Program-made: the position numbers and the translations under genes | Shown here: in pieces, positions 6,493-28,354 of the stretch | Layout: each line of letters begins with the position of its first letter | Position numbering within the stretch: position 1 is the stretch's first letter | Assembly: GCA_963789955.1 (NCBI GenBank) | Contig: CAWBMV010000034.1 | Coordinates: 736,001-800,000, forward strand | Direction of reading: 5' to 3' | Length of the DNA stretch: 64,000 nt | Source of the DNA: an uncultured Candidatus Rokubacteria bacterium | GTDB taxonomy: Bacteria; Methylomirabilota; Methylomirabilia; Rokubacteriales; CSP1-6 | The notes under the pieces: model-generated | What the model saw: the letters and a program-made list of their open reading frames with translations, nothing else | Told to the model about the DNA's origin: nothing | Database searches by the model: none

Positions 6493-7384
6493 ATGCGCCC
6501 ACTCCGAATCGTGCTCGCGGCGATGCTCACGGTGCTCGCGATGGTCGGCGCCGCGGCGCCACCGATCCGAGCTGGCCCAAGGAGGTCACGTTCGGCCTCT
6601 TGTCCACCGAGAACGCCGCCGAGATCACGCGCCGGTGGGCGCCGATCCTGGCCCAGCTCGAGAAGGACCTGGGAGTGAAGGTCAAGGCGGTGACCGCGAC
6701 GGATTACCGCGGCACCATCGAGGCGCTGAAGTTCAAGAAGGCCGAGCTCGGCCACCTCGGGCCCAAGGCGTACGTCGAAGCCTCGAACAACAACTACGCG
6801 AACGTCGAGCCGATCGCCCAGCTCCAGCTCGCGAACGGCTCGCTCGGCTATCGCTCGTGCCTGATCGTGCACGCCGACTCCGACATCTTCAGCCCCGAGG
6901 ACATGGCCGGCAAGACCTTCGCCTTCAACGACCCGAACTCGACCTCGGGCTATCTGGTGCCGTCGGCGTTCTTCATGATGGAGCTCGGCGTCGATCCCAA
7001 GAAGCACTTCTCGAAGGTCACGTTCTCCGGCTCGCACGAGGCGTCGATCCTGGCGGTGGCCGCGAAGAAGGTCGAGATCGCCTCGACCAATCTGCCGGAT
7101 CTCCAGCAGCTCACGCGGGAGAACAAGGTGCCGCGCGGCGCCCTGCGCGTGATCTGGGTCTCGAAGCTGATCCCGAACGACCCGATCGTCGTCCGCAAGG
7201 ACCTGCCGGCGAGCTTCAAGTCGGCCGATCGCAGGAGTCGCTGACGACGATGCGCGCGCGGAACCCGGAAGCGTTCAAGGACATCGGCGCGTGGCTCGGC
7301 GACTTCGTCGCGGCCGACGACAGCAAGTACCAGGTGATCCGCGACCTGAACGAGACCGCCAAGAAGCTCGCCGCGCAGAAGTAA
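6493..7384 (+). CDS. phnD: Phosphonate ABC transporter substrate-binding protein (frameshifts)
   Basis: Signal peptide; STEN, DPNSTSGYLVP, GSHEAS, IPNDPIV motifs. Confidence 0.9.
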
Positions 7385-13887: not shown

Positions 13888-13923
13888 CACGGCTTCTCCG
13901 TTCCCGATGGCCGGGCCGGGGAA

Positions 13924-13967
13924 TTTCACGCTTCCGTCATCATTTCGTAACGATCCGCGTAGACCAT
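13924..13967 (+). promoter_or_regulatory. Pho-box-like promoter
   Basis: TTTCAC(13924), CGTCAT(13935), CGTAAC(13946) at 11-bp period, then GACCAT(13962). Confidence 0.65.
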
Positions 13968-14703
13968 GCCGGCCATGATCGAGTTGCTCGGAGTCGGCGC
14001 GCCTCGAGAGGACGGCGGCTGGAGGCTCCATCGCGTCTGCGCGAGCTTCCAGCGGGGCGAGGTGACTCTCGTCGTCTCGCGTCTGCCCGAGGAGCGGGAT
14101 GCGCTGCTGGACGCGGTCGCCGCCCGTATCGTTCCCGACGAGGGGCGCGTCTGGGTTTCTCACGTGCCGGTGTCGCGCGACACGGTCCGCCGCATCCGTG
14201 GAATGGTCGTGGAAGCCGACGTGCACGCCCGGCCGGTCGAGCATCGCTCGCTGCTCTGGAACGTGCTCGTCGCCGGCAAGTCCGGACATCGCGCGCTCCC
14301 CGGGCTCTTGCGCCTGCCGCGCAAGTCGGAGCGCCTCGCCGCGAGGCGCGCGCTCGAGCGCGTCGGGCTGGCAGGTCGTGAGGTCGAGACCGCATCCGGC
14401 CTCGGCGCGGTCGATCGGGCGCGGCTCGCGCTCGCGAGCGCGCTGGTGACGACGCCGGAGGTGCTGGTGGCGCGCGAGATCGATCGCGGGCTCGACGGCG
14501 CCGAGGCGGCGACCGTGCGCGCCCTGCTACGATCGCTCGCTCATCGCGAGCGGCTCGCGGTGCTGGCCAGCGCCGCCACGCCGGCCGCCGCGTCGGACTT
14601 CGCGGATCGTCTCGTCGCGATCGCCGACGGTCTGCTCGTCTTCGACGGCGCGCCGGCCGACTTCGGCGGTCAGCGCGTCGCCTGGCGCTTCGGCACCGCG
14701 TAG
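13966..14703 (+). CDS. Degenerate PhnC-like ABC ATPase domain protein lacking catalytic motifs (start may be ATG 13975)
   Basis: ABC layout kept (SLLWNVL, ALERVGL, FADRLVAIADGLLVFDG), but Walker A, signature and Walker B positions read SRLPEERD, LGAVDRAR and VARE. Confidence 0.75.
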   Translation: MPAMIELLGVGAPREDGGWRLHRVCASFQRGEVTLVVSRLPEERDALLDAVAARIVPDEGRVWVSHVPVSRDTVRRIRGMVVEADVHARPVEHRSLLWNVLVAGKSGHRALPGLLRLPRKSERLAARRALERVGLAGREVETASGLGAVDRARLALASALVTTPEVLVAREIDRGLDGAEAATVRALLRSLAHRERLAVLASAATPAAASDFADRLVAIADGLLVFDGAPADFGGQRVAWRFGTA

Positions 14704-14733
14704 TCCCGCCCGGCACCTCCGAGCACTTTTTAC

Positions 14734-14913
14734 TTGTCCACACTGTCCACAGGGCAACCCCCCGTCTGTCCCCAGCAACACACTATTTGCGGTCCTGTAA
14801 TACCCAAGCAACAATATATTGGGTACGCTGGGCCGGTGCTCACGCGTACGACCGGTTCCCTTCGGGTTGGTGGTTGTTTTGCAGTGTGGATGGCTGTGGA
14901 CAACTGTGGATGA
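14734..14913. promoter_or_regulatory. Cluster of DnaA-box-like 9-mers flanking an AT-rich core with an NrdR-box-like palindrome
   Basis: TTGTCCACA(14734), CTGTCCACA(14743), CTGTCCCCA(14766); opposite orientation TGTGGATGG(14885), TGTGGACAA(14895), TGTGGATGA(14905); CAATATATTG(14812). Confidence 0.6.
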
Positions 14914-14936
14914 TTCTCCGAGAGGAGGCGAACGGT

Positions 14937-15737
14937 TTGAAGCGGATCGATACCCACTCGCACCCGAAGATGTCCAAGCACTTCAAGTTCGACCCGAGGT
15001 CGGTGGAGCGCATGGTGCGCATGGCCGGACGGGTCGGGCTCGACGGTCTCGCGCTCACCGAGCATTTCCACGGGACGGATTTCTGGGCGGTCCACGAGCA
15101 TCTCGAGCGCACGTATCCGGTCGAGGGCGGCGTCTTCTGGGCCGGGAACGGCTCGCGCTGATTCCGGGAGCCGAGATCAACATCCGCGAGGGCGCGCACG
15201 TCATCGTCCTCGGTGAGGTCGCCGAGCTGCGCCGGCTCGATCGCGCGTTTCCCGAGTGGCTGTCGCACCGCTACGAGCCGACCCTGCGCGAGTTCCTCGA
15301 CGTCAGCGAATACTTCGACGTCGCGCGAATCGGCGCGCACATGTTCCGTCCGAAGAAAGAGCTCGGAAAATTCCGCATCGACGATCTGCGGCGACTGCAC
15401 GCGCTCGAGGTGAACGGCAAGGATTTCGGGACGGAGGTCATGTTGCTCGTGCAAGCGCGCGCGCTCGGCTTGCCGATCGTCGCGGGAAGCGACGCGCATC
15501 ACTGGCTCCAGCTCGGCGTTCGCCACACGCTCGATGCACGTCGACGAGATCAGAATCGCGAGCGTGTTGAAGACGATCAGAGAGGGCTTGACGGGCTTTG
15601 CAACATCCCCCTATACTCCGCTCCGCGTCAGGGGCGCTAAGTCCCTGAAAAACATTACGAAACTGTTACGAAAATGTTACGGCAGAGTGATCGCGAGCGG
15701 AACCCCGCGGCCTGCAGTCTCGACCGCCAGCAGCTGA
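14937..15737 (+). CDS. PHP-domain metal-dependent phosphoesterase (frameshifts near 15150 and 15530)
   Basis: TTG start after GAGGAGG; DTHSH, ALTEH, GAEI, AHMFR, EVNG, GSDAH PHP motifs. Confidence 0.85.
15654..15681 (-). promoter_or_regulatory. Inverted Pho-box-like triple repeat inside the 3' end of the PHP gene, upstream of the amphi-Trp genes
   Basis: ATTACG(15654), GTTACG(15665), GTTACG(15676) read CGTAAC/CGTAAC/CGTAAT on the minus strand; 11-bp period with A/T-rich spacers. Confidence 0.65.
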
Positions 15738-15898
15738 TTGCCCCGTAACTGATGCCCCGGGAAGCGGCCGGCCGGGGCGAGATCGTAGCCGAAGCCGCTC
15801 GCAGACCGTCAGTCGAGAACCGCCAACTACGAAGGCCGTCGCACCCGTACCGCCGCCGGAGACCACGACGCTCGGCGCGGCCGGCCCAGAGGGAGCAG

Positions 15899-16171
15899 GT
15901 GAGCGCCGCGATTCCGGCGAAGTTCCACGCTCGAGCGCGCCGGGACGCCGCGGCGTTCTATCTGACGCAGCTGGCCAAAGGAGTCCTCGCGGGCGAGCTG
16001 GCGATCGCCGTCGGAGATCAGCAGATCCAGCTCGCGACGTCCGAGTTCGTGATTCTGAAGATCGAGGCCAAGCAGCGGAAGCGCGCGAACCACGTCAGCG
16101 TCAAGCTTCGATGGCCGAGGCGTCCACTGATCCGGGTCGCTGCGGCAAGGGGAGATCGTGATGGGAGATAG
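15899..16171 (+). CDS. Amphi-Trp domain protein 1
   Basis: Amphipathic helix AAAFYLTQLAKGVLAGEL, beta-strands, terminal KLRW. Confidence 0.75.
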   Translation: MSAAIPAKFHARARRDAAAFYLTQLAKGVLAGELAIAVGDQQIQLATSEFVILKIEAKQRKRANHVSVKLRWPRRPLIRVAAARGDRDGR

Positions 16172-16418
16172 CCGGGAGTTCGAGTTCGAAGGTGCCGCAA
16201 CGCCCTCGGAGGCCGCCGACGCGCTGAACCGTATCGCGGACGGGATCCGGGCACGCTCGCTGTCGCTCTCGATGGGCGAGGAAGAGATCACCGTCTATCC
16301 GGACGGCGACCTCGCGATGGAGATCGAGGCGAGCGAGAAGAAGGGAAAGGCGAAGATCGAGATCGCCATCGCCTGGAAGCGCGCCAAGCCAGATGACGAC
16401 GATGAGGACGAGGACTAG
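16161..16418 (+). CDS. Amphi-Trp domain protein 2 with acidic tail
   Basis: EAADALNRIADGIRARSL...IEIAIAWKR, C-terminus DDDDEDED. Confidence 0.85.
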   Translation: MGDSREFEFEGAATPSEAADALNRIADGIRARSLSLSMGEEEITVYPDGDLAMEIEASEKKGKAKIEIAIAWKRAKPDDDDEDED

Positions 16419-16435
16419 GCCGAAAGGGGCTCACG

Positions 16436-16717
16436 ATGGCAAAGAACAGCGTTCAGTTCGCCCGGATCGCGTCGCCCGAGGAGATCGCGGAGTATCTCAC
16501 GTCGCTGGCCGTCGGGCTCAAGCGGGGTGAGATCAGCCTCGAGTCCGGCGAGCGCTCGCTCCATCTGTCGCCCGCGAGCGACGTCAAGCTCGAGCTGAAG
16601 GTGGGACAGAAGGAGCGCAAGGGCCGCATCGAGCTCGAGATCGGCTGGAAGCGCTCGACGGCGGCGAAGACGTCCGAGCTGCGCGTGGCGGTCGGGCAGC
16701 GCCCGGCGCGCGCGTAG
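16436..16717 (+). CDS. Amphi-Trp domain protein 3
   Basis: EIAEYLTSLAVGLKRGEI...IELEIGWKR. Confidence 0.85.
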   Translation: MAKNSVQFARIASPEEIAEYLTSLAVGLKRGEISLESGERSLHLSPASDVKLELKVGQKERKGRIELEIGWKRSTAAKTSELRVAVGQRPARA

Positions 16718-16766
16718 CCGTTTCCCGCTCCGCTCCGCGACCCGATCCCGGATCAGACATCGATCC

Positions 16767-18365
16767 GTGACTAGCGTCCTGCGCGAAGACCTGGGCCAGG
16801 ACCTCGCCATGATGGCGCGGCTCGTCCAGTCGCAGCTCATCCGCGGCATGACGGCCTTCTTCCAGCGCGACGCGCGGCTCGCCGAGCAGGTGACCCAGAA
16901 GGACGACCAGGTCGACAACCTGCTCGGCCTCATCGAGGTGAAGTGCTTCGAGCGCATCGCCGGCGAGGAGCCCAACGGCGTGCGCTCGCGCCAGCTCCGC
17001 GGCGTCTTCCGGGTCGCGCTGAACCTCGAGAAGCTCGGCGACTACGCCGTCAACATCGCCGAGCAGGCGGTGCACGTCTCGCGCCTCAAGGCCCGTCCGA
17101 TCCCGTTCGACCTGGCCGGGCCGGCGCGCGTCGCGCTGGCCGCGCTCGACGAGGTCATCACCGCCTTCACCGACGCCAGCGCCGAGAAGGCCAAGCACGC
17201 CTGCCGCTGCGAGGTCGAGCTCGACCGGCAGTACCGCGATGCGCTGCAGGAAGCGTTTCGCCGCCTCGCGCAGCCGCACCCGGACCCGGCGTTCGTGATC
17301 ACGAACCTCTTCGTCGCGAAATTCCTCGAGCGGATCGGCGACTCGATCCTGAACATCGGCGAGACGACGCTCTTCATCCTGACCGGCGAGCGGCTCAAGC
17401 TGCATCAGTACCTGCACCTCGAGCAGGTGGCCGGTGCGCTCGCCCCGCACGGGGAGGGCGCGCTCGACTTCCGCCAGATCTGGGGCGGCATCAGCGGGGC
17501 GCGGGTCGGCCGGCTCGCGGTCGGCCAGAGCGAGCCGCTGATCTGGAAGGAGGGCGACGAGCGGAAGATCGACGAAGAGATCCGCGAGATGGACGCGTGG
17601 AACCGGATCGTCCCCGGGCTCGTGCCCGACGTCAAGGCGCGCCATCGCGAGGAGGGCCGGCTCTCGTTCCTGGGCCAGTTCCTGCGCGGGAGCCTGCTGC
17701 GCGACATCTACATCACCCGGACCTGGGACGACAAGGTCCGCGCCACTCGCCGGCTCCTCGAGACCGTCCGCGACATCTGGTCGACCACGCTCGTGAAGGA
17801 GCCGCCGCGAATCGACTACGCCCGGCAGATCCGCGAGCGGCTGCCCGAGCTCTTCGCGCTCCACCCGAAGCTCGAGACCTTGCGCGGCGGCGAGAGCCGC
17901 GTGTTCGGGATCGCCCACGGCTCGCTGGCCGATCTGCTCGAGCGCGCCGCCGAGCTCGAGGCCTCGCTGGCGCCGCCGGTCTCGGTCCGGCTCCACGGCG
18001 ACTTCAACGCCAACAACGTGGTCTACGACGCCGAGTCGGACCGCGTGCACTTCATCGACGTGCACCGGAGCGGTCACGGCGACTACCTGCAAGACATCGG
18101 CGTGCTGCTGGTCTCGAACGTGCGCAATCCGATCGAGGACGGGCGCGTCGCCGGCGACCTGGCGCGGCTCAACGACCGCATTCGCGAGTTCGCGCTCGAG
18201 TTCGCCCGCCGGATCGGCGACGACCACTTCGAGACGCGGCTGACGCTCTCGCAGGCGCGCTCGTTCATCACCTCGGGTCGCGTCGTGGCCGACTTCGAGT
18301 TCGCGCGGTCGATCTTCCTGCAGGGCGTGCGTCTGCTCGAGCGCGCGACCGCGCTCGCCGCGTGA
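16767..18365 (+). CDS. PhoU-domain / aminoglycoside-phosphotransferase-like kinase fusion
   Basis: N-terminal PhoU repeats (DDQVDNL, LEKLGDYAVNIAE, LERIGDSILNIGE); C-terminal HGDFNANN and FIDVH kinase motifs. Confidence 0.85.
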   Translation: MTSVLREDLGQDLAMMARLVQSQLIRGMTAFFQRDARLAEQVTQKDDQVDNLLGLIEVKCFERIAGEEPNGVRSRQLRGVFRVALNLEKLGDYAVNIAEQAVHVSRLKARPIPFDLAGPARVALAALDEVITAFTDASAEKAKHACRCEVELDRQYRDALQEAFRRLAQPHPDPAFVITNLFVAKFLERIGDSILNIGETTLFILTGERLKLHQYLHLEQVAGALAPHGEGALDFRQIWGGISGARVGRLAVGQSEPLIWKEGDERKIDEEIREMDAWNRIVPGLVPDVKARHREEGRLSFLGQFLRGSLLRDIYITRTWDDKVRATRRLLETVRDIWSTTLVKEPPRIDYARQIRERLPELFALHPKLETLRGGESRVFGIAHGSLADLLERAAELEASLAPPVSVRLHGDFNANNVVYDAESDRVHFIDVHRSGHGDYLQDIGVLLVSNVRNPIEDGRVAGDLARLNDRIREFALEFARRIGDDHFETRLTLSQARSFITSGRVVADFEFARSIFLQGVRLLERATALAA

Positions 18366-19252
18366 AGATCGCCGTCGTCGGCCAGCCGGGCGCGTGGTCC
18401 ACCGAGCGTCTGGCGGACGCGCTGCGCGCCTGCGGGACGGAAGCCACGGTCGTCGATCTCGCCGCCTGCAGCCTGCGACTTCCAGATCGACGGCTCTTCC
18501 ATCGCGGCGAGCCGCTCGAGGGGCTCGACGGCGCCGTCGTCAAGAAGCTCGGCGACACCGCCGACGGCTGGAGCGTCCAGGAGCGCATCGGCATGTTGCG
18601 TCACCTGGAGGCCGCGGGTGTTCCGGTGCTGAGCGCCCCGGATTGCCTCCACGTCGCGGTGAACCGCTATCGCATGACCGCGGAGCTCGTCCGGGCCGGG
18701 CTGCCGGTGCCGCCGACGACGATCACGGAAGACGTCGACGAAGCGGCGGCCGCCGTCGCGCGCTTCGGCACCGCCGTGATCAAGCCGTTGTTCACCTCGA
18801 AGGGCCGCGGCATGCGCCGGCTCGAGCCGACGCGCGAGCTCCGCCGCGAGCTCGAGTCGCATCGCGACGGCGGGCTCGGGCCGTTCTATCTCCAGCGCTT
18901 CGTGAAGCATCCCGGACGCGACCTCGGCGTGGCCGTGCTCGACGGACAGTGCATCGGCGCCTACTGGCGGGTCGCCGCCGGCGATCAGTGGATGACGACG
19001 ATCCTCTCCGGCGGCCACTACGAGAAGGCGGACATCACGCCCGAGACGGCGGCGATGGCCGTGGCCGCCGCGCGGCACTTCGGCCTGGTCTTCACGGGCG
19101 TCGACCTGATCGAAGATCCGGACGGACGCTTCACCGTGCTCGAGGTCAGCGCGTTCGGCGGATTTCGTGGACTCTTGAAGGGCTGCGGAGTCGACGCGGC
19201 GCCGATGCTCGCCGACGTCGTGCTACGCCGCTTCCGCGAGGCGCGAGGTTGA
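18362..19252 (+). CDS. GAK-system ATP-grasp enzyme (RimK-like)
   Basis: VIKPLFTSKGRGM, FYLQRFV, GVDL, LEVSAFGGFRGL; GTGA coupling to the upstream gene. Confidence 0.85.
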   Translation: MKIAVVGQPGAWSTERLADALRACGTEATVVDLAACSLRLPDRRLFHRGEPLEGLDGAVVKKLGDTADGWSVQERIGMLRHLEAAGVPVLSAPDCLHVAVNRYRMTAELVRAGLPVPPTTITEDVDEAAAAVARFGTAVIKPLFTSKGRGMRRLEPTRELRRELESHRDGGLGPFYLQRFVKHPGRDLGVAVLDGQCIGAYWRVAAGDQWMTTILSGGHYEKADITPETAAMAVAAARHFGLVFTGVDLIEDPDGRFTVLEVSAFGGFRGLLKGCGVDAAPMLADVVLRRFREARG

Positions 19253-20299
19253 GCCCCGAATCTCTCATCGAGGCGATCGAGACACCGCACAGCCTCTCGC
19301 TCTGCTTCGCGGAGGTGCCGATCCAGGTCAAGACCAACGATCCCGAGGTCCGGGCTCGGCTCGCGTCGTACTTCCGTCCCTATGTGGTCAGCGGCCGTCC
19401 GCCTCTGGCGGAAGTCAGTCTGATCCAGGGGTCTCTGCCGATCCCCGGCGAGTTCGCGGACCTGGCGCGGGAAGGAGGCCGGCGGCCGAAGGAGGCGACG
19501 CAGGAGGTCGCCGGCGGGCGCCTGATCCTCAAGCGGGCGACAGGAGTTCTGATCGGGCTCTGGCCCGGCGGCGCCTTCGCGGCCGGCGACATCCGCGCGA
19601 ATCTGAACCAGGGCATCAACCTCGTCAACAACTGTTACGCCAAGATCGTGCTCCGCCGAGGACACGCGCTGCTCCACGCCTCCGCCGTGTCGCGCGACGG
19701 GCGCACCGCGGTGCTGGCCGGTCCGCCCGGGGCGGGGAAGTCCACCTCCGCGCTCCATCTCGTCGAGGCCGGTTTCCGCTGTCTCTCGAACGATCGGGTC
19801 CTCGCCAAGCCGATGGCGGACATGGTGGAAGCGCTCGGCTATCCCAAGCAGCCCCGCGTCAACCCGGGCACGCTCCTCGGCCATCCGCGGTTATCGGCGC
19901 TGCTCGAGCCGGCCGACTGCGCCGCGCTCGCCGCGCTGCCCGCGGGTGAGCTGTGGGAGCTCGAGCGGAAATCGGACGTGGACCTCGACAGCGTCTACGG
20001 CCCCGGCACCGTCGACCTGCGCGGTCGCATGGAAGCCCTGGTGCTCTTGAAGTGGCGGCGGGACGGGCGAGGGCTCGACGTCCGCCGGCTCTCGGCCGAC
20101 GACGCGCTCGAGGCCCTGCCGCTCGTCTACAAGAACCTCGGCGCCTTCGACCTCGACCGCGCTCCCCGGTGCCGCGATGACCGACGCCGAGCGCGAAGCG
20201 TTCCGCGAGCTATTCGGTCGGGTCGCAGTGGTCGAGGTCACCGGCGGGGTCGATTTCGGCGGGCTCGTCGGCGTCGTCGACAAGCTCCTGTCCGTCTGA
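19249..20299 (+). CDS. HprK-related kinase B (frameshift near 20165)
   Basis: LHASAV, GPPGAGKST, LSNDR, PKQPRVNPGT, LERKSDVD. Confidence 0.85.
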
Positions 20300-20323
20300 G
20301 ACCTCTCGACTCCGCCGGGCACC

Positions 20324-20379
20324 TGTCACCCAAGATTTACCCGTCCGTCATCGTCCCGTAACCCCCTCGAGCCGACACT
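20324..20379 (+). promoter_or_regulatory. Pho-box-like promoter of phoB (autoregulation)
   Basis: TGTCAC(20324), ATTTAC(20335), CGTCAT(20346), CGTAAC(20357) at 11-bp period, then GACACT(20374). Confidence 0.7.
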
Positions 20380-21259: not shown

Positions 21260-22305
21260 ATGAAGACTGCGTGGATCACGGCCCTGACATTGCTCGTGAC
21301 GAGCGCGTTCGCGCAGCCGGCCGCGGCCCAGACCTTGATCAACGGCGCCGGCGCGACGTTCCCGTATCCGATCTATTCGAAGTGGTTCGACGAGTACACG
21401 AAGGTCGATCCGGAGGTGCGGTTCAACTACCAGTCGATCGGCAGCGGCGGCGGCATCAAGCAGGTGACCGCGCGCACGGTCGACTTCGGCGCGTCCGACG
21501 GGCCCATGAACGACGAGCAGCTGAAGGCGGCTGCGTCCGAGCTGCTGCACATCCCGACCGTCATCGGTGCGGTCGTCGCGACCTATAACCTGCCGGGCTC
21601 CCCGAAGCTCAAGCTCACCGGCGACGTGCTCGCGGACATCTTCCTCGGGAAGATCACGAAGTGGAACGATGCGAAGATCGCCGCGCTCAACGCCGGCGTG
21701 TCCTTGCCGGACAGCCGATCGTCGTCGTGCATCGCTCGGACGGAAGCGGCACCACCTACATCTGGGTGGACTACCTCTCGAAGATCAGCTCCGAGTGGGA
21801 GAAGAAGGTCGGCCGCGGCACGTCGGTGAACTGGCCGGTCGGGCTCGGCGGCAAGGGCAACGAAGGCGTCTCGGGCCAGGTGAAGAACCAGCCGGGCGCG
21901 ATCGGCTACGTCGAGCTCGCCTACGCGGTGAAGAACAATCTCCCGGTCGCCTCGGTGAAGAACGCGGCCGACAAGTTCGTCGCACCCTCGATCGCGTCCA
22001 CGACGGCGGCCGCGGCCGGCGCGGCCAAGAGCATGCCGGACGATTTCCGTGTCTCGCTCACGAACCCGCCCGGTGACGAGGCGTACCCGATCGCCAGCTT
22101 CACGTGGCTGCTGGTCTACAAGGACCAGCCGAACGAGCTGAAGGGACGGGCGATCGTCAAGTTCCTGTGGTGGATGAGCCACGACGGACAGAAGTACGCC
22201 GACGACCTGCTGTACGCTCCGCTGCCGACGCCGGTGGTGAAGCAGATCGAGGCCAAGATCAAGCAGATCACCTACCAGGGCAAACCTCTGCTGGCGGGCC
22301 GCTAG
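21260..22305 (+). CDS. pstS: Phosphate ABC transporter substrate-binding protein (frameshift near 21710)
   Basis: [44 protein letters not shown]. Confidence 0.95.
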
Positions 22306-22311
22306 CGCCAG

Positions 22312-23282
22312 ATGGCGGTCGTCGCGGCGGTTCAGCGGGTCGAAGCGCGGGCGGCGCCGAGGAACTTCGGCGACCAGATCCTGCGCTTCGTCATGCGGGG
22401 CGCCGCGCTGACGCTCGTTCTGCTCGTCGTCGCCATGATCGTGTCGATGCTCTATGCGGCGTGGCCCGCGATGCGAGCGTTCGGCTGGCGGTTCCTGGCG
22501 TCCTCGACGTGGGATCCGGTGGCCGAGCAGTTCGGCGCGCTGCCGTTCATGTACGGCACCCTGGTCTCGTCGCTTGCTCGCGCTGCTCATCGCCGTGCCG
22601 CTCGGCGATCGGCGCGGCCATCTTTCTCGCCGAGCTCGCGCCGGCGTGGATGCGCTCGCCGATCGCCTTCCTGGTCGAGCTGCTGGCGGCGATCCCGAGC
22701 GTGGTCTACGGGCTCTGGGGCATCTTCGTCCTGGCGCCCTTCCTGCGCGGTCTGGGTGCAACCTGCCCTCGGCAAGACGTTGGGGTTCCTACCGCTCTTC
22801 CAGGGCCCGCCGCACGGCGTCGGCATGCTGGCCGCGGGTATCATCCTGGCGATCATGATCGTGCCGTACATCACGTCGGTGAGCGCGTGAGGTGCTGCTG
22901 GCCGTGCCGAACACCCAGCGCGAGGCGGCGCTCGCGCTCGGCGCGACGCGCTGGGAGACGATCGCGCATCGCGGTCCTGCCTACGGCCGTTCCGGGCTCG
23001 TCGGCGCGATCCTGCTCGGTCTCGGGCGCGCGCTCGGCGAGACGATGGCGGTGACGATGGTCATCGGCAATCGCCCCGAGGTCGCGTTGTCGCTGTTCGC
23101 GCCGGGCTACACGATGGCCAGCGTCATCGCCAACGAGTTCGCCGAGGCGACGTCCGACCTCTATCTGGCGGCGCTGATCGAGATCGGCCTGCTGCTCTTC
23201 GCCGTCACCGTTGTCGTCAACGCGCTGGCGCGGCTGCTGGTATGGTCGCGTCGGCGGCCCGGTGAAGGTGGTGCGCGAGTGA
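22312..23282 (+). CDS. pstC: Phosphate ABC transporter permease (frameshifts)
   Basis: [40 protein letters not shown]. Confidence 0.92.
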
Positions 23283-24122
23283 CACCTCGGTCGCGTCGCG
23301 TCGTGAACGTCGTGATGTCGTGGCTGGCCGCCGCGGCCGCGGGCGTCGTCGTGCTCCCGCTGCTCCTGATCTTCGCGTTCCTGCTCTGGCAGGGCGCGTC
23401 GGCGGTGAACGTCGATTTCTTCACGCATCTGCCCAAGCCGGTGGGCGAGGTGGGCGGCGGCATGGCGAACGCGATCGTCGGCACCCTGATACTCCTCGCC
23501 CTGGCCGCGATCCTCGGTCTGCCGATCGGCATCCTCGGCGGTCTCTACCTCGCCGAGTCTCGCGACCGGCGGTTACCGTGGGTGGCGCGGTTTCTGGCCG
23601 ACGTGCTCAACGGCGTGCCGTCGATCGTGGTCGGTATCTTCGCCTACACGATCATCGTGCTGCCGATGCAGCGCTTCTCGGCGCTCGCCGGCGGCGTTCG
23701 CGCTGGCGGTGATCATGCTCCCGATCGTGGTGCGCACCAGCGAGGAGCTCGTGCGGCTGGTGCCGGCCTCGCTGCGCGAAGCCGGCCTGGCGCTCGGCAT
23801 CCCAGAGTGGAAGGTGCTGTTGCGCGTCGTCCTGCGGACCGCACGCGCGGGCATCATCACCGGCGTCATGGTGGCGGTCGCGCGCGTCGCCGGGGAGACG
23901 GCGCCGCTGCTGTTCACGGCCTTCGGCAACCGCTTCTGGCATCAAGGGCTCGATCAGCCGATCGCGTCGCTGCCGCTTCAGATCTTCACGTACGCGATCG
24001 CGCCGTACGACGACTGGCACCGCCAGGCCTGGGCGGGAGCACTCGTGCTCATCGGCCTGGTATTCGTGGTGAGCTTCGCGGCCCGCGTCGCTACGCGCGG
24101 CCGCTTCACGGGGGTAAGATAA
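23279..24122 (+). CDS. pstA: Phosphate ABC transporter permease (frameshift near 23700)
   Basis: [33 protein letters not shown]. Confidence 0.92.
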
Positions 24123-26785: not shown

Positions 26786-27839
26786 ATGTCGCCGGCCGAC
26801 CCGGATCTCGACGCTGACGCGATCGAAAGCCTCTTCGCCCGCGGCGTCACCGACGGCCTCCCGGTCGTGCCGCCGACCCGACGCCTGGTCGAGCGAGCGA
26901 TCGCGGCGTCGGGGCGCGCCGCCGACGAGCTGATCGCGCTCGTCCCGCCCAATTACGGCCGCGCGACCGTCGAGAAGATCGCGATCAACGCGGTCATGGC
27001 CGGATGCCGCCCGGAGTACCTGCCGGTCGTGCTCGCTGCGATCGACGCGATCTGTGACGAAGCGTTCGACCTGCACGGCGTGTCGGCGACGACGAACGCG
27101 CCGTCGCCGCTCGTGATCGTCAACGGCCCGATCCGCGCGGAGCTCGAGATCAACTCCGGGGCGGGCGTGTTCGGCCCGGGCTGGCGGGCCAATGCGACGA
27201 TCGGCCGGGCGGTGAGGCTGGTGTGTGTGAACCTCGGCGGGGCGAAGCCGGGCGACGTCAGCATGTCGACGCTCGCCCATCCCGGGCGCTACGCGTATTG
27301 CATCGGCGAGCACGAAGAAGAGAGTCCGTGGGAGTCGTTGGCGGTCGAGCACGGGTTCGCGTCCGACGAGAGCACCGTCGCGCTCCTCGCTGCCGACGCG
27401 CCGCTCGGTGTCTACGCGCAGCGCAGCCGTACTCCCGATGACCTCATGCCGACGATTGCCGCGAGCATGGCCGTGATCTCCCATCACCGGATGACGCACT
27501 GGGGGGACACCTTGCTGCGTGCTCTCGCCGGAACACGCGAAGATCCTCGGCGACGCCGGCTGGAAGAAGGCCGACGTTCGCCGCTGGCTCCACGAGCGAC
27601 TGCAGTGGCCGGTGCGCGAGCTCATTCCCGGGCGCGACGGAGGCGAGGGCCTGCCCGCGCACGTGCTCGGGAAGTATCGCGATCCGGATCGCGAGACCAC
27701 GCGGATCCCGAAGTTTCGCGCGCCCGAGCACATCAAGGTCATGGTCGCCGGGGGCACCGCCGGACGGTTTTCCGCGATCGTGCCGGGCTGGACGTTCTCG
27801 AAGGGCTCGAATCTCGTCTTCAGGAGGATCGACCGATGA
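26786..27839 (+). CDS. Conserved protein typically associated or fused with UGSC (seleno)proteins (frameshift near 27520)
   Basis: GVTDGLPVVPPT, TVEKIAINAVMAGCRPEYLPVV, RANATIGRA motifs. Confidence 0.75.
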
Positions 27840-28354
27840 CCGAGTATCTCGATCCGACCGATTCGGTCGCCGTGCCCCGCAAGACGGCGTCACGTCCCGT
27901 GAGCCTCGACGGCAAGGTCATCACCTTGCTCGACATCTCGAAGGCGCAGGGCAATCACCTGCTGGACCGGCTCGAAGAGCTGCTGCGCGAGCGCACGGGG
28001 GCGAAGGCTATCGTCCGGAAGAAGAAGCCGACCTTCGCGCGCCCCGCGCCCGACGCGCTCCGCAAGGAGATCGTCGGCGCCACCGACGTCCTCGTCGAGG
28101 GACTCGCCGACTGAGGGTCGTGTACAACGTGCAGTGTGCACGACGGCGTGTTCTTCGAAGACAACGGTGTCCCGGTGGCGACGGTGATCTCGTCCGAGTT
28201 CGTCCGAGCCGCGCGCGCGCAGGCGGATGCGCTCGGCGCCGCCGACTATCGGACGGTCGTGGTGGCGCACCCGATTCAGCCGCTCACCCGCGAAGAGGTG
28301 AGGGCGCTCGCCGACCGCGCGTTCGACGAGATCGTCAGGAGAATCACGGCGTGA
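27836..28354 (+). CDS. UGSC-family selenoprotein (TGA 28112-28114 read as Sec)
   Basis: Continuous frame ...GLAD-TGA-GSCTTCSVHD...HPIQ; downstream stem-loop. Confidence 0.85.
28117..28144 (+). promoter_or_regulatory. Bacterial SECIS-like hairpin
   Basis: GTCGTGTAA-type arm GTCGTGTACA pairs with TGTGCACGAC (one G-U) around ACGTGCAG, starting 3 nt after the in-frame TGA. Confidence 0.65.

Follow-up and report, generated by a model that had tools for sequence, protein, structure and literature searches.

A GAK-type gene cassette in a Rokubacterial phosphate island: gene content, Pho-box-like sites and a possible role in phosphorus handling

Between the carbon-phosphorus lyase genes and the phosphate uptake operon of an uncultured Candidatus Rokubacteria bacterium lies a cassette that raises the question of what two kinases, a ligase and a putative hydrolase do among genes for phosphorus acquisition, and whether the regulator PhoB governs them. 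The cassette consists of seven plus-strand genes at 14937-20299 of a 64,000-nt stretch of contig CAWBMV010000034.1 (the window, to which all plain coordinates refer) and resembles the GAK (Grasp, Amphipathic, Kinase) system. That system is named in annotation databases and occurs across several phyla, and no study of it was found in the literature, subscription journals lying mostly outside the scope of the search. An earlier note on the window had read the locus as a Pho-regulated phosphorylation and ligation system. The answer reached here is a tentative one: the cassette may be a PhoB-steered GAK variant that writes phosphate onto, and erases it from, a small, soluble, anionic acceptor, thereby buffering or signalling phosphorus. 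The parts of this reading differ in standing. Some form of PhoB control of the GAK locus very probably exists; that phosphorylated PhoB (PhoB~P) opens a promoter P1, adding the PHP enzyme, and damps the core transcript from a second promoter P2 is somewhat favoured; and chemistry of the two kinases, the ligase and PHP on a small phosphorylated molecule would be, by analogy, plausible if on the doubtful side.

Gene content and relation to other GAK loci

The seven genes are co-oriented, as noted earlier, and the last three are coupled, with a 4-nt overlap at each of the PhoU-kinase/ATP-grasp/HprK-B junctions:

14937-15737, plus strand: short PHP-family metalloenzyme (PHP_C and CehA/McbA models; 260-265 aa in relatives)
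15899-16171, plus strand: amphi-Trp protein 1, basic, start uncertain (TIGR04354, 39.3 bits, cut-off 31)
16161-16418, plus strand: amphi-Trp protein 2, with acidic tail (TIGR04354, 63.7 bits, cut-off 31)
16436-16717, plus strand: amphi-Trp protein 3, candidate partner of the PhoU-kinase (TIGR04354, 58.1 bits, cut-off 31)
16767-18365, plus strand: fusion of a PhoU domain and an APH-type kinase (PF01895 and PF01636)
18362-19252, plus strand: GAK-type ATP-grasp ligase of the RimK/LysX/MptN group (TIGR04356, 278.2 bits, cut-off 300)
19249-20299, plus strand: HprK-related kinase B, HprK-B (TIGR04355, 230.9 bits, cut-off 200)

The surrounding genome is 6.8 Mb in size and 87% complete, its nearest related loci are those of Rokubacteria/Methylomirabilota, and the seven-gene set is kept in Rokubacteria-like relatives. 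Upstream are phnC/E/G/H/L/M genes followed, before PHP, by an inositol-monophosphatase-family gene and a degenerate PhnC-like gene, and downstream is phoB-pstSCAB-phoU, so that the placement first described was correct.

NCBIfam defines the GAK families as TIGR04354 (amphi-Trp), TIGR04355 (HprK-B), TIGR04356 (ATP-grasp), TIGR04357 (CofD-like) and TIGR04358 (XXXCH). The attribution of the core to GAK held up, with all three amphi-Trp proteins and HprK-B above their cut-offs and the ATP-grasp protein just below, TIGR04356 still being its top family by 88 bits; that cut-off was passed by none of the ten matches in the phylum and by all 19 match-bearing Desulfobacterota genomes. The CofD-like and XXXCH proteins, already reported as missing from the locus, were found neither in the 87% complete genome (best TIGR04357 match 87 bits against a cut-off of 340) nor at 12 related Rokubacterial loci; the CofD-like model finds its gene in 4/5 control genomes and the XXXCH model works on locus L015. 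Because three curated membership features fail, though the locus resembles other GAK loci, the cassette is by its sequence a GAK variant without CofD-like and XXXCH genes and not a canonical member. XXXCH proteins elsewhere (L015:6246-6803 and related) have an N-terminal domain that resembles amphi-Trp (a small search gave E 1e-4 to 1e-3), and their XXXCH part models as a helical bundle resembling cytochrome c' or b562.

The distribution of the GAK ATP-grasp is patchy. It was present in 10/201 genomes of the phylum, all of one family and all below the cut-off, in 19/251 genomes of the phylum of a Desulfobacteraceae genome (Desulfobacterota), on five alphaproteobacterial plasmids annotated as GAK, of which three were examined, and in 425 stretches of metagenome DNA; 80 of these stretches were retrieved, and the 47 of at least 5 kb were mapped. 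Genes were called by a custom script and labelled via representatives, and gene content was counted at loci with both flanks (12 Rokubacterial, 41 other) after exclusion of duplicates and of three loci with heavy frameshifting or truncation. The PhoU-kinase lay immediately 5' of the ligase at 12/12 Rokubacterial and 38/41 other loci, HprK-B was the next gene after the ligase at 12/12 and 36/41, a phosphoesterase-type gene was nearby at 12/12 and 33/41, and amphi-Trp genes were present at 12/12 and 35/41; the other loci also held a CofD-like gene in 25/41 and an XXXCH gene in 13/41 cases. Since 38/41 and 33/41 loci of other lineages have them, the PhoU-kinase fusion and the hydrolase are usual GAK parts and not local extras. 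A kinase tree (FastTree, long branches flagged) sorts GAK loci by hydrolase type into three subtypes, having a short PHP, a long PHP-like protein, or histidine phosphatase, calcineurin-like and Nudix enzymes.

Some loci depart from this plan. PHP and three amphi-Trp genes occur at L057:4638-5213 without the PhoU-kinase, the ligase and the start of HprK-B, and at L009 PHP and two amphi-Trp genes are missing. At L010, L100 and L106 the ligase and HprK-B stand alone, followed by peroxiredoxin and pta genes and in two of them also by ackA and a CofD-like gene, and L102-L104 have ligase and CofD-like genes without HprK-B. A 1009-aa protein, P0085, fuses a calcineurin-like phosphoesterase part (a motif reading) to the PhoU-kinase. 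A phage collection yielded partial PhoU matches only.

Phosphorus genes (pst, phoB, ppx or phn) lay within about 10 kb at all 12 Rokubacterial genome loci and at three more, while no pst/phoB/ppx/phn match came from five metagenome loci of the Rokubacterial clade that are short or basal, one of them having ppk. Elsewhere pst genes were near 3/26 and phoH near 3/26 loci, and among held-out non-Rokubacterial loci pstB, phoU or phnM was near 3/28; a caveat that must be applied to all of these counts is that the Rokubacterial loci are kin and that several loci end at contig borders. The expectation that GAK loci in general lie beside phosphorus genes was therefore not borne out, and since pst genes adjoin only 3/26 other loci the position beside pst/phoB is mainly a Rokubacterial trait.

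As assembled, frameshifts break the PHP gene twice, near 15145 and near 15533, and HprK-B once, near 20170. In 8/8 relatives examined PHP is unbroken, as a single gene of 260-265 aa, the extra letters at its breaks are missing from RNA-library contigs of close strains (3/4 and 4/4 runs), and phnD (6558-7381) and pstS, pstC and pstA (21260-24119) carry single-base frameshifts in the same window; for these reasons the breaks in PHP, HprK-B and the phosphorus genes are most likely assembly errors.

Pho-box-like sites and promoters

A Pho-box matrix was built on relatives, with 93 units that precede their phoB, pstS and phnC-like genes. The array that it places first among 13.5 million genome positions, at 28.1 bits on the minus and 19.2 bits on the plus strand, lies inside the cassette and outscores the phoB, pstS and phn sites of the genome. 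Its half-site fits the (c/t)GTnAC repeat of Desulfovibrio PhoB, and 11-bp direct repeats are present; the accessible part of PMC3333781 describes the D. vulgaris PhoB (DVU1083) box as gel-shift-validated, 11-bp-spaced (c/t)GTnAC repeats. The sites under discussion are as follows:

14734-14751, plus strand: two tandem DnaA-box-like 9-mers upstream of PHP
14773-14812 and 14824-14829, plus strand: candidate promoter P1, four weak 11-bp-spaced Pho-box-like units and a -10-like TACGCT
14810-14823, plus strand: palindrome resembling an NrdR box, after the last P1 unit and before the -10
14885-14913, minus strand: three DnaA-box-like 9-mers just upstream of the PHP ribosome-binding site
15588-15617, plus strand: P2, a sigma-70-like promoter TTGACG-18-TATACT in the PHP coding sequence (sequence match)
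15652-15682, minus strand: three-unit Pho-box array in the 3' end of the PHP coding sequence (28.1 bits)
20323-20379, plus strand: phoB promoter, a four-unit forward Pho box with a -10-like hexamer (23.2 bits, rank 4)

The Pho-box-like array reported before the amphi-Trp genes is thus real and the best of the genome, but it is not intergenic. It sits 36 nt downstream of P2, at roughly +30 to +59 relative to the start predicted for P2, and P2 is the sole promoter-like site in 14650-16800 (shuffle mean 0.2). A full P2 was found in 21/26 distinct loci, all 21 with a box 36 nt behind it; a box of at least 15 bits was found in 23/26 and the minus strand scored better in 24/26. Both motifs are written in rare codons, TTG at the -35 (Leu, 4% usage), ACT at the -10 (Thr, 3%) and TTA in the box (Leu, 0.3%), each kept in 8/8. 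Among the 99 sigma-70-like sites of the genome, just two are followed by a 12-bit triplet at a distance of up to 110 nt. The loci L074 and L079 encode a similar peptide in ordinary codons, without the box and without the last T of the -10, from which it follows that the PHP protein does not need the DNA motif; they branch as sister to the P2-bearing clade, for which reason P2 and box probably arose once.

The activating geometry of a box followed after 10 nt by a -10, as seen at other phosphorus-gene boxes of the genome (-10-like hexamer 10-11 nt downstream), was found behind the internal array in 0/22 loci on either strand. Since no -10 follows and the array lies downstream of a promoter, the array does not resemble an activating site for the amphi-Trp genes; PhoB would be likely to act here in the direction opposite to simple induction. 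On the minus strand most loci have GACTTA 10 nt after the box, without the last T of a -10, and an activating antisense promoter is still conceivable there. The phoB-pst operon has its own promoter, as the four-unit box and -10-like hexamer at 20323-20379 indicate.

The proposed PhoB-activated promoter of PHP is P1, whose units (13.5 bits, rank 62 in the genome) show the same four-unit arrangement as those upstream of phoB; units followed about 11-12 nt later by TAnnnT occur in 18/19 loci. Scans with consensus motifs added possible NrdR and DnaA sites. The NrdR-like palindrome has 1-2 mismatches in 10/10 loci and a partner at -31 with 3-5 mismatches, and an nrdR gene is present in the genome. 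NrdR boxes are tandem, about 31 bp apart. With 100 NrdR-like sites of at most two mismatches in the genome, a single site is weak alone; the only perfect match (contig G000 C17:134866) precedes the gene for a B12-dependent ribonucleotide reductase and is accompanied by DnaA-like repeats. The DnaA-like cluster is one of three in the genome with at least three boxes in 300 bp, another of which precedes dnaA, and similar 9-mer repeats lie upstream of PHP in relatives. A reading of the cluster as a replication origin was rejected, there being no guanine-cytosine skew turn and dnaA lying on another contig with its own boxes. A terminator-like hairpin at 14851-14871 in the PHP leader (one found, shuffle mean 1.4) showed no conservation in distant relatives.

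For other lineages the first two columns of the matrix were softened by hand. Forward triplets of at least 10 bits then preceded 10/22 non-Rokubacterial GAK operons against 3/95 control upstream regions, and 14/22 upstream regions beat shuffles at P <0.05. Held-out metagenome loci gave triplets in 5/24 against 2/63 controls (Fisher 0.016), with 8/24 beating shuffles, under an operon-start rule set close to that of the first locus set after a stricter rule had given 3/23 against 1/61 in a first pass; all of these enrichment tests are inflated by kinship. At 9/22 other-lineage operons a TA-starting hexamer follows the box exactly 10 nt later, as read by eye. Control by Pho seems to recur among GAK loci, and the link to the Pho regulon first suggested for this locus is strengthened by Pho-box-like repeats both here and before many GAK operons of other phyla.

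Three genes named in published work could not be tied to GAK. The 'phoU homolog Dde_2835' of a D. alaskensis fitness study is purN in that study's supplement, with no GAK gene recognisable in the part of the file consulted, and neither the D. vulgaris PhoB target DVU1475 ('PhoU family protein') nor Dbac_1052 ('metallophosphoesterase', box at -29) could be matched to GAK. Elsewhere in the genome, the PhnC-like ABC ATPase gene at 13923-14703, whose Walker A looks degenerate, is conserved in relatives and has a strong Pho box to itself (23.2 bits), and a near-identical box and gene start lie on contig G000 C5 near 241. The same contig (C5:2300-8300) holds a second phosphate island with two pstS, pstC, pstA, pstB, ppx and Pho-like triplets. 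An open reading frame at 26786-28114 of the window has a weak match to UGSC-family (seleno)proteins and is conserved in L004, L008 and L012.

The enzymes and their possible substrate

The catalytic motifs of both kinases and the ligase are intact. The PhoU-kinase fusion has 241 representatives at E 1e-30 or better and is confidently modelled (predicted local distance difference test, pLDDT, 95.9), its nearest folds being APH and 5-methylthioribose kinases and PhoU. K261, E271, H410-G-D412-x-N414, D431 and the PhoU acidic motifs are conserved in 117 sequences, five Arg residues of the C-terminal half are at least 90% conserved, and the ligase has eight conserved Lys/Arg; these basic residues may point to an anionic substrate. 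Outside GAK the top family for the ligase is MptN (189.8 bits), which ligates glutamate to a cofactor, and the ligase also passes rimK_fam TIGR00768 (150.5 bits, cut-off 143.4); among solved structures it is closest to RimK and LysX, which carry EVN where it has EVS. A kinship with ITPK1/PPIP5K, suggested by motif likeness, had no sequence match, both being absent among 33 solved sequences matching the ATP-grasp at E up to 10. In HprK-B the His, Walker A and N-D-R are invariant, and the His, Walker A and Asp-Arg align with HPr kinase; the HPr kinase/phosphorylase model TIGR00679 gives 18.3 bits, far below its cut-off of 240.

The short PHP, present in 14/159 genomes of the family, has HxH, E-H, H and DxH motifs that are invariant, and its best solved relative is PsfC (7RTY, E 3e-18). 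No kinship was detected between it and the long Desulfobacterota protein (probability 0.4), which has no solved match and whose 'PHP-like' label is a motif reading. The CofD-like transferase and the hydrolases of the GAK subtypes are families of small-molecule chemistry. Together with a kinase fold nearest to small-molecule kinases and an MptN-like ligase, this variety leads us to favour, by analogy, small-molecule chemistry.

The amphi-Trp proteins had been put forward as possible targets of the enzymes. They share a basic hairpin and some have acidic tails, but in an alignment of 47 the Trp is the sole invariant residue (best Ser column 19/47) and no conserved Ser, Thr, His or C-terminal residue offers a covalent acceptor; among 68 proteins the last residue is of 12 kinds, and is Glu in 8/68. 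The LysW carrier has a conserved C-terminal Glu, which is not matched here. What survives of the suggestion is a contact: a predicted complex of amphi-Trp 3 with the PhoU-kinase scored 0.44 against 0.00 for the best of three controls, contacts agreeing to at least 94% between runs with partner pLDDT of at least 80. The mark was reached by 116/157 solved and 2/215 mismatched pairs, and the scores up to 0.60 comprise only 18/157 solved pairs and both mismatches, so that the model lends weak support to binding. The predicted fold of amphi-Trp 3, a helix plus four strands, had no match (best Foldseek E 0.95, best Z 3.1 in a wide search; monomer predicted template modelling score 0.55), and an Atlas search returned its own family alone. 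Amphi-Trp-type proteins at L040:3608-4066 and L037:6746-7168 have long Lys/Ala/Pro tails like histone-like polyanion-binding tails, and one amphi-Trp protein, DITHS69_2464, stands in a table of the most abundant Dissulfuribacter thermophilus proteins in the accessible part of PMC13490349.

Proposed working, alternatives and known systems

According to the reading preferred here, P2 would supply phosphate-replete cells with the two kinases, the ligase and the amphi-Trp proteins but with no PHP. Under starvation PhoB~P would open P1, adding PHP, and from the array behind P2 would damp P2 by a roadblock or a convergent promoter; the NrdR- and DnaA-like sites may, weakly, tie P1 to nucleotide and replication state. 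The APH-type kinase would phosphorylate a small molecule, governed by its own PhoU domain as a phosphate or metal sensor, with amphi-Trp 3 as a bound, non-covalent subunit. The ATP-grasp enzyme would add an amino acid, most likely glutamate; HprK-B would add a further phosphate or, driven by inorganic phosphate as is the reversal by HPr kinase, remove it; and PHP would hydrolyse or break the product, releasing phosphate. The fullest version of this scheme is improbable as a whole: GAK would make and break a phosphorylated, glutamylated small molecule serving as a phosphate store or second messenger and read via the PhoU-gated kinase, the Rokubacterial PhoB toggle (eraser on, writers off) would be embedded in the eraser's own coding sequence, and the NrdR and DnaA sites would link it to deoxynucleotide supply and replication.

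A number of observations weigh against the preferred reading. The 21 P2 loci are not independent if P2 and box arose once, the internal box was found in 0/27 loci of other lineages, and its half-site is nearly palindromic, the plus strand also scoring 19.2 bits. Intragenic PhoB sites of E. coli are mostly inert, and also unconserved, according to the accessible part of PMC10294691. P1 is weak at 13.5 bits, with a box to -10 spacing of 11-12 nt instead of 10. A strong upstream box is missing (<10 bits) in 12/22 and 19/24 non-Rokubacterial operons, and the boxes that are present lie upstream of the whole operon, which would suggest plain induction and, on this evidence, speaks against a general store-when-replete role. 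RNA contigs of related strains span parts of PHP and the amphi-Trp genes and are uninformative on transcript starts, strand or level; two contigs of one RNA run stop at 15653, which gives no evidence of a transcription start. On the chemical side the ligase has EVS instead of the ExN metal-binding motif in 31/31, and HPr kinase relatives act on proteins and peptides, as far as the accessible part of PMC8498205 goes. The phosphatase activity of PHP is an assumption, since PsfC, its nearest solved relative, is not a phosphatase but a dinuclear non-heme iron enzyme (PMC12871164, in its accessible part).

One rival reading is a protein switch, in which the kinases and a RimK-like ligase would phosphorylate and glutamylate an amphi-Trp or other protein and PHP would reverse it. 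This is unlikely, if worth serious attention: the ligase is nearest RimK and LysX among solved structures, the lasso-peptide homologues of HPr kinase phosphorylate a peptide Ser, even repeatedly (PMC8498205, in the same part), and the amphi-Trp genes, some with acidic tails, are present at 35/41 and 12/12 loci and include one weakly predicted partner of the PhoU-kinase. The sequences of those proteins, with Trp alone invariant, a best Ser of 19/47 and 12 different C-terminal residues, are however unlike a LysW-type carrier, and the Nudix and CofD-like partners of other subtypes suit small molecules better.

Of comparable, and equally low, probability is plain starvation-induced scavenging or sparing, PhoB turning on the whole operon from P1 while the internal array fine-tunes, loops or autoregulates. 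The P1 layout equals that of the phoB promoter, other lineages' forward boxes precede the first gene (9/22 with the TA-starting hexamer 10 nt later), and the Rokubacterial neighbours include acid phosphatase, glycerophosphodiesterase, ppx, pyrophosphatase, phn and pst genes. Such induction leaves unexplained why rare codons within a coding sequence should preserve both the genome's strongest box and a promoter close to the consensus, and two kinases and a ligase consume ATP instead of freeing phosphate. A merely local link, GAK having some other stress or conflict role and being captured by a phosphorus island and by PhoB in some lineages only, appears distinctly improbable. It would accord with the rarity of adjacent phosphorus genes outside Rokubacteria, with the patchy spread (10/201 and 19/251 genomes, and plasmid copies without pst neighbours) and with a weak TCAD9 match below cut-off; yet a PhoU domain with conserved acidic motifs belongs to the core kinase, and upstream Pho-like triplets were enriched over controls in two independent locus sets.

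If the preferred reading is true and GAK makes a new phosphate store or signal, it would represent a new branch of phosphate homeostasis in bacterial lineages that are abundant in soil and sediment. With a phosphate cue, a candidate binding pair and a predicted direction under PhoB~P (PHP up, core promoter down), it could be tested in carriers that can be cultured, which include Tritonibacter mobilis, Pseudooceanicola and sulfate reducers. The dual-coded promoter and operator would clearly exemplify a PhoB-type site conserved within a gene, something that the E. coli data, in the part of the source cited above, suggest to be rare.

Compared with known systems the locus shows a mixture of likeness and difference. 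PsfC, the diiron PHP enzyme of fosfomycin biosynthesis (7RTY), is the best solved match of PHP, but no phosphonate biosynthesis genes were seen at the locus. With APH and 5-methylthioribose kinases and PhoU the fusion shares both confidently modelled folds and conserved catalytic and acidic motifs, and it differs in its Arg-rich C-terminal half and in that, as a fusion, it belongs to no family with a name or a solved structure in the libraries searched. HprK-B aligns with HPr kinase/phosphorylase and the lasso-peptide kinases in its catalytic His, Walker A and following Asp-Arg, whereas it has Asn-Asp for Asp-Asp and no HPr or lasso genes nearby. The ligase passes the rimK_fam cut-off and conserves the ATP-grasp residues of the RimK/LysX/MptN/CofF ligases; it departs from them in EVS for ExN and in small accompanying proteins without a LysW-like carrier end. 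The 11-bp-spaced repeats of the Desulfovibrio vulgaris Pho regulon recur here upstream of phoB, pstS and phn genes, but the strongest site is intragenic, downstream of a promoter and with no -10 behind it. From the GAK system itself the locus differs in its three free amphi-Trp genes, its short PsfC-like PHP, an ATP-grasp below cut-off, the missing CofD-like and XXXCH genes and an internal promoter with Pho box that was found in this clade alone; what it shares with that system is the order of amphi-Trp, ATP-grasp and HprK-B, with the PhoU-kinase upstream and a phosphoesterase-type gene in front.

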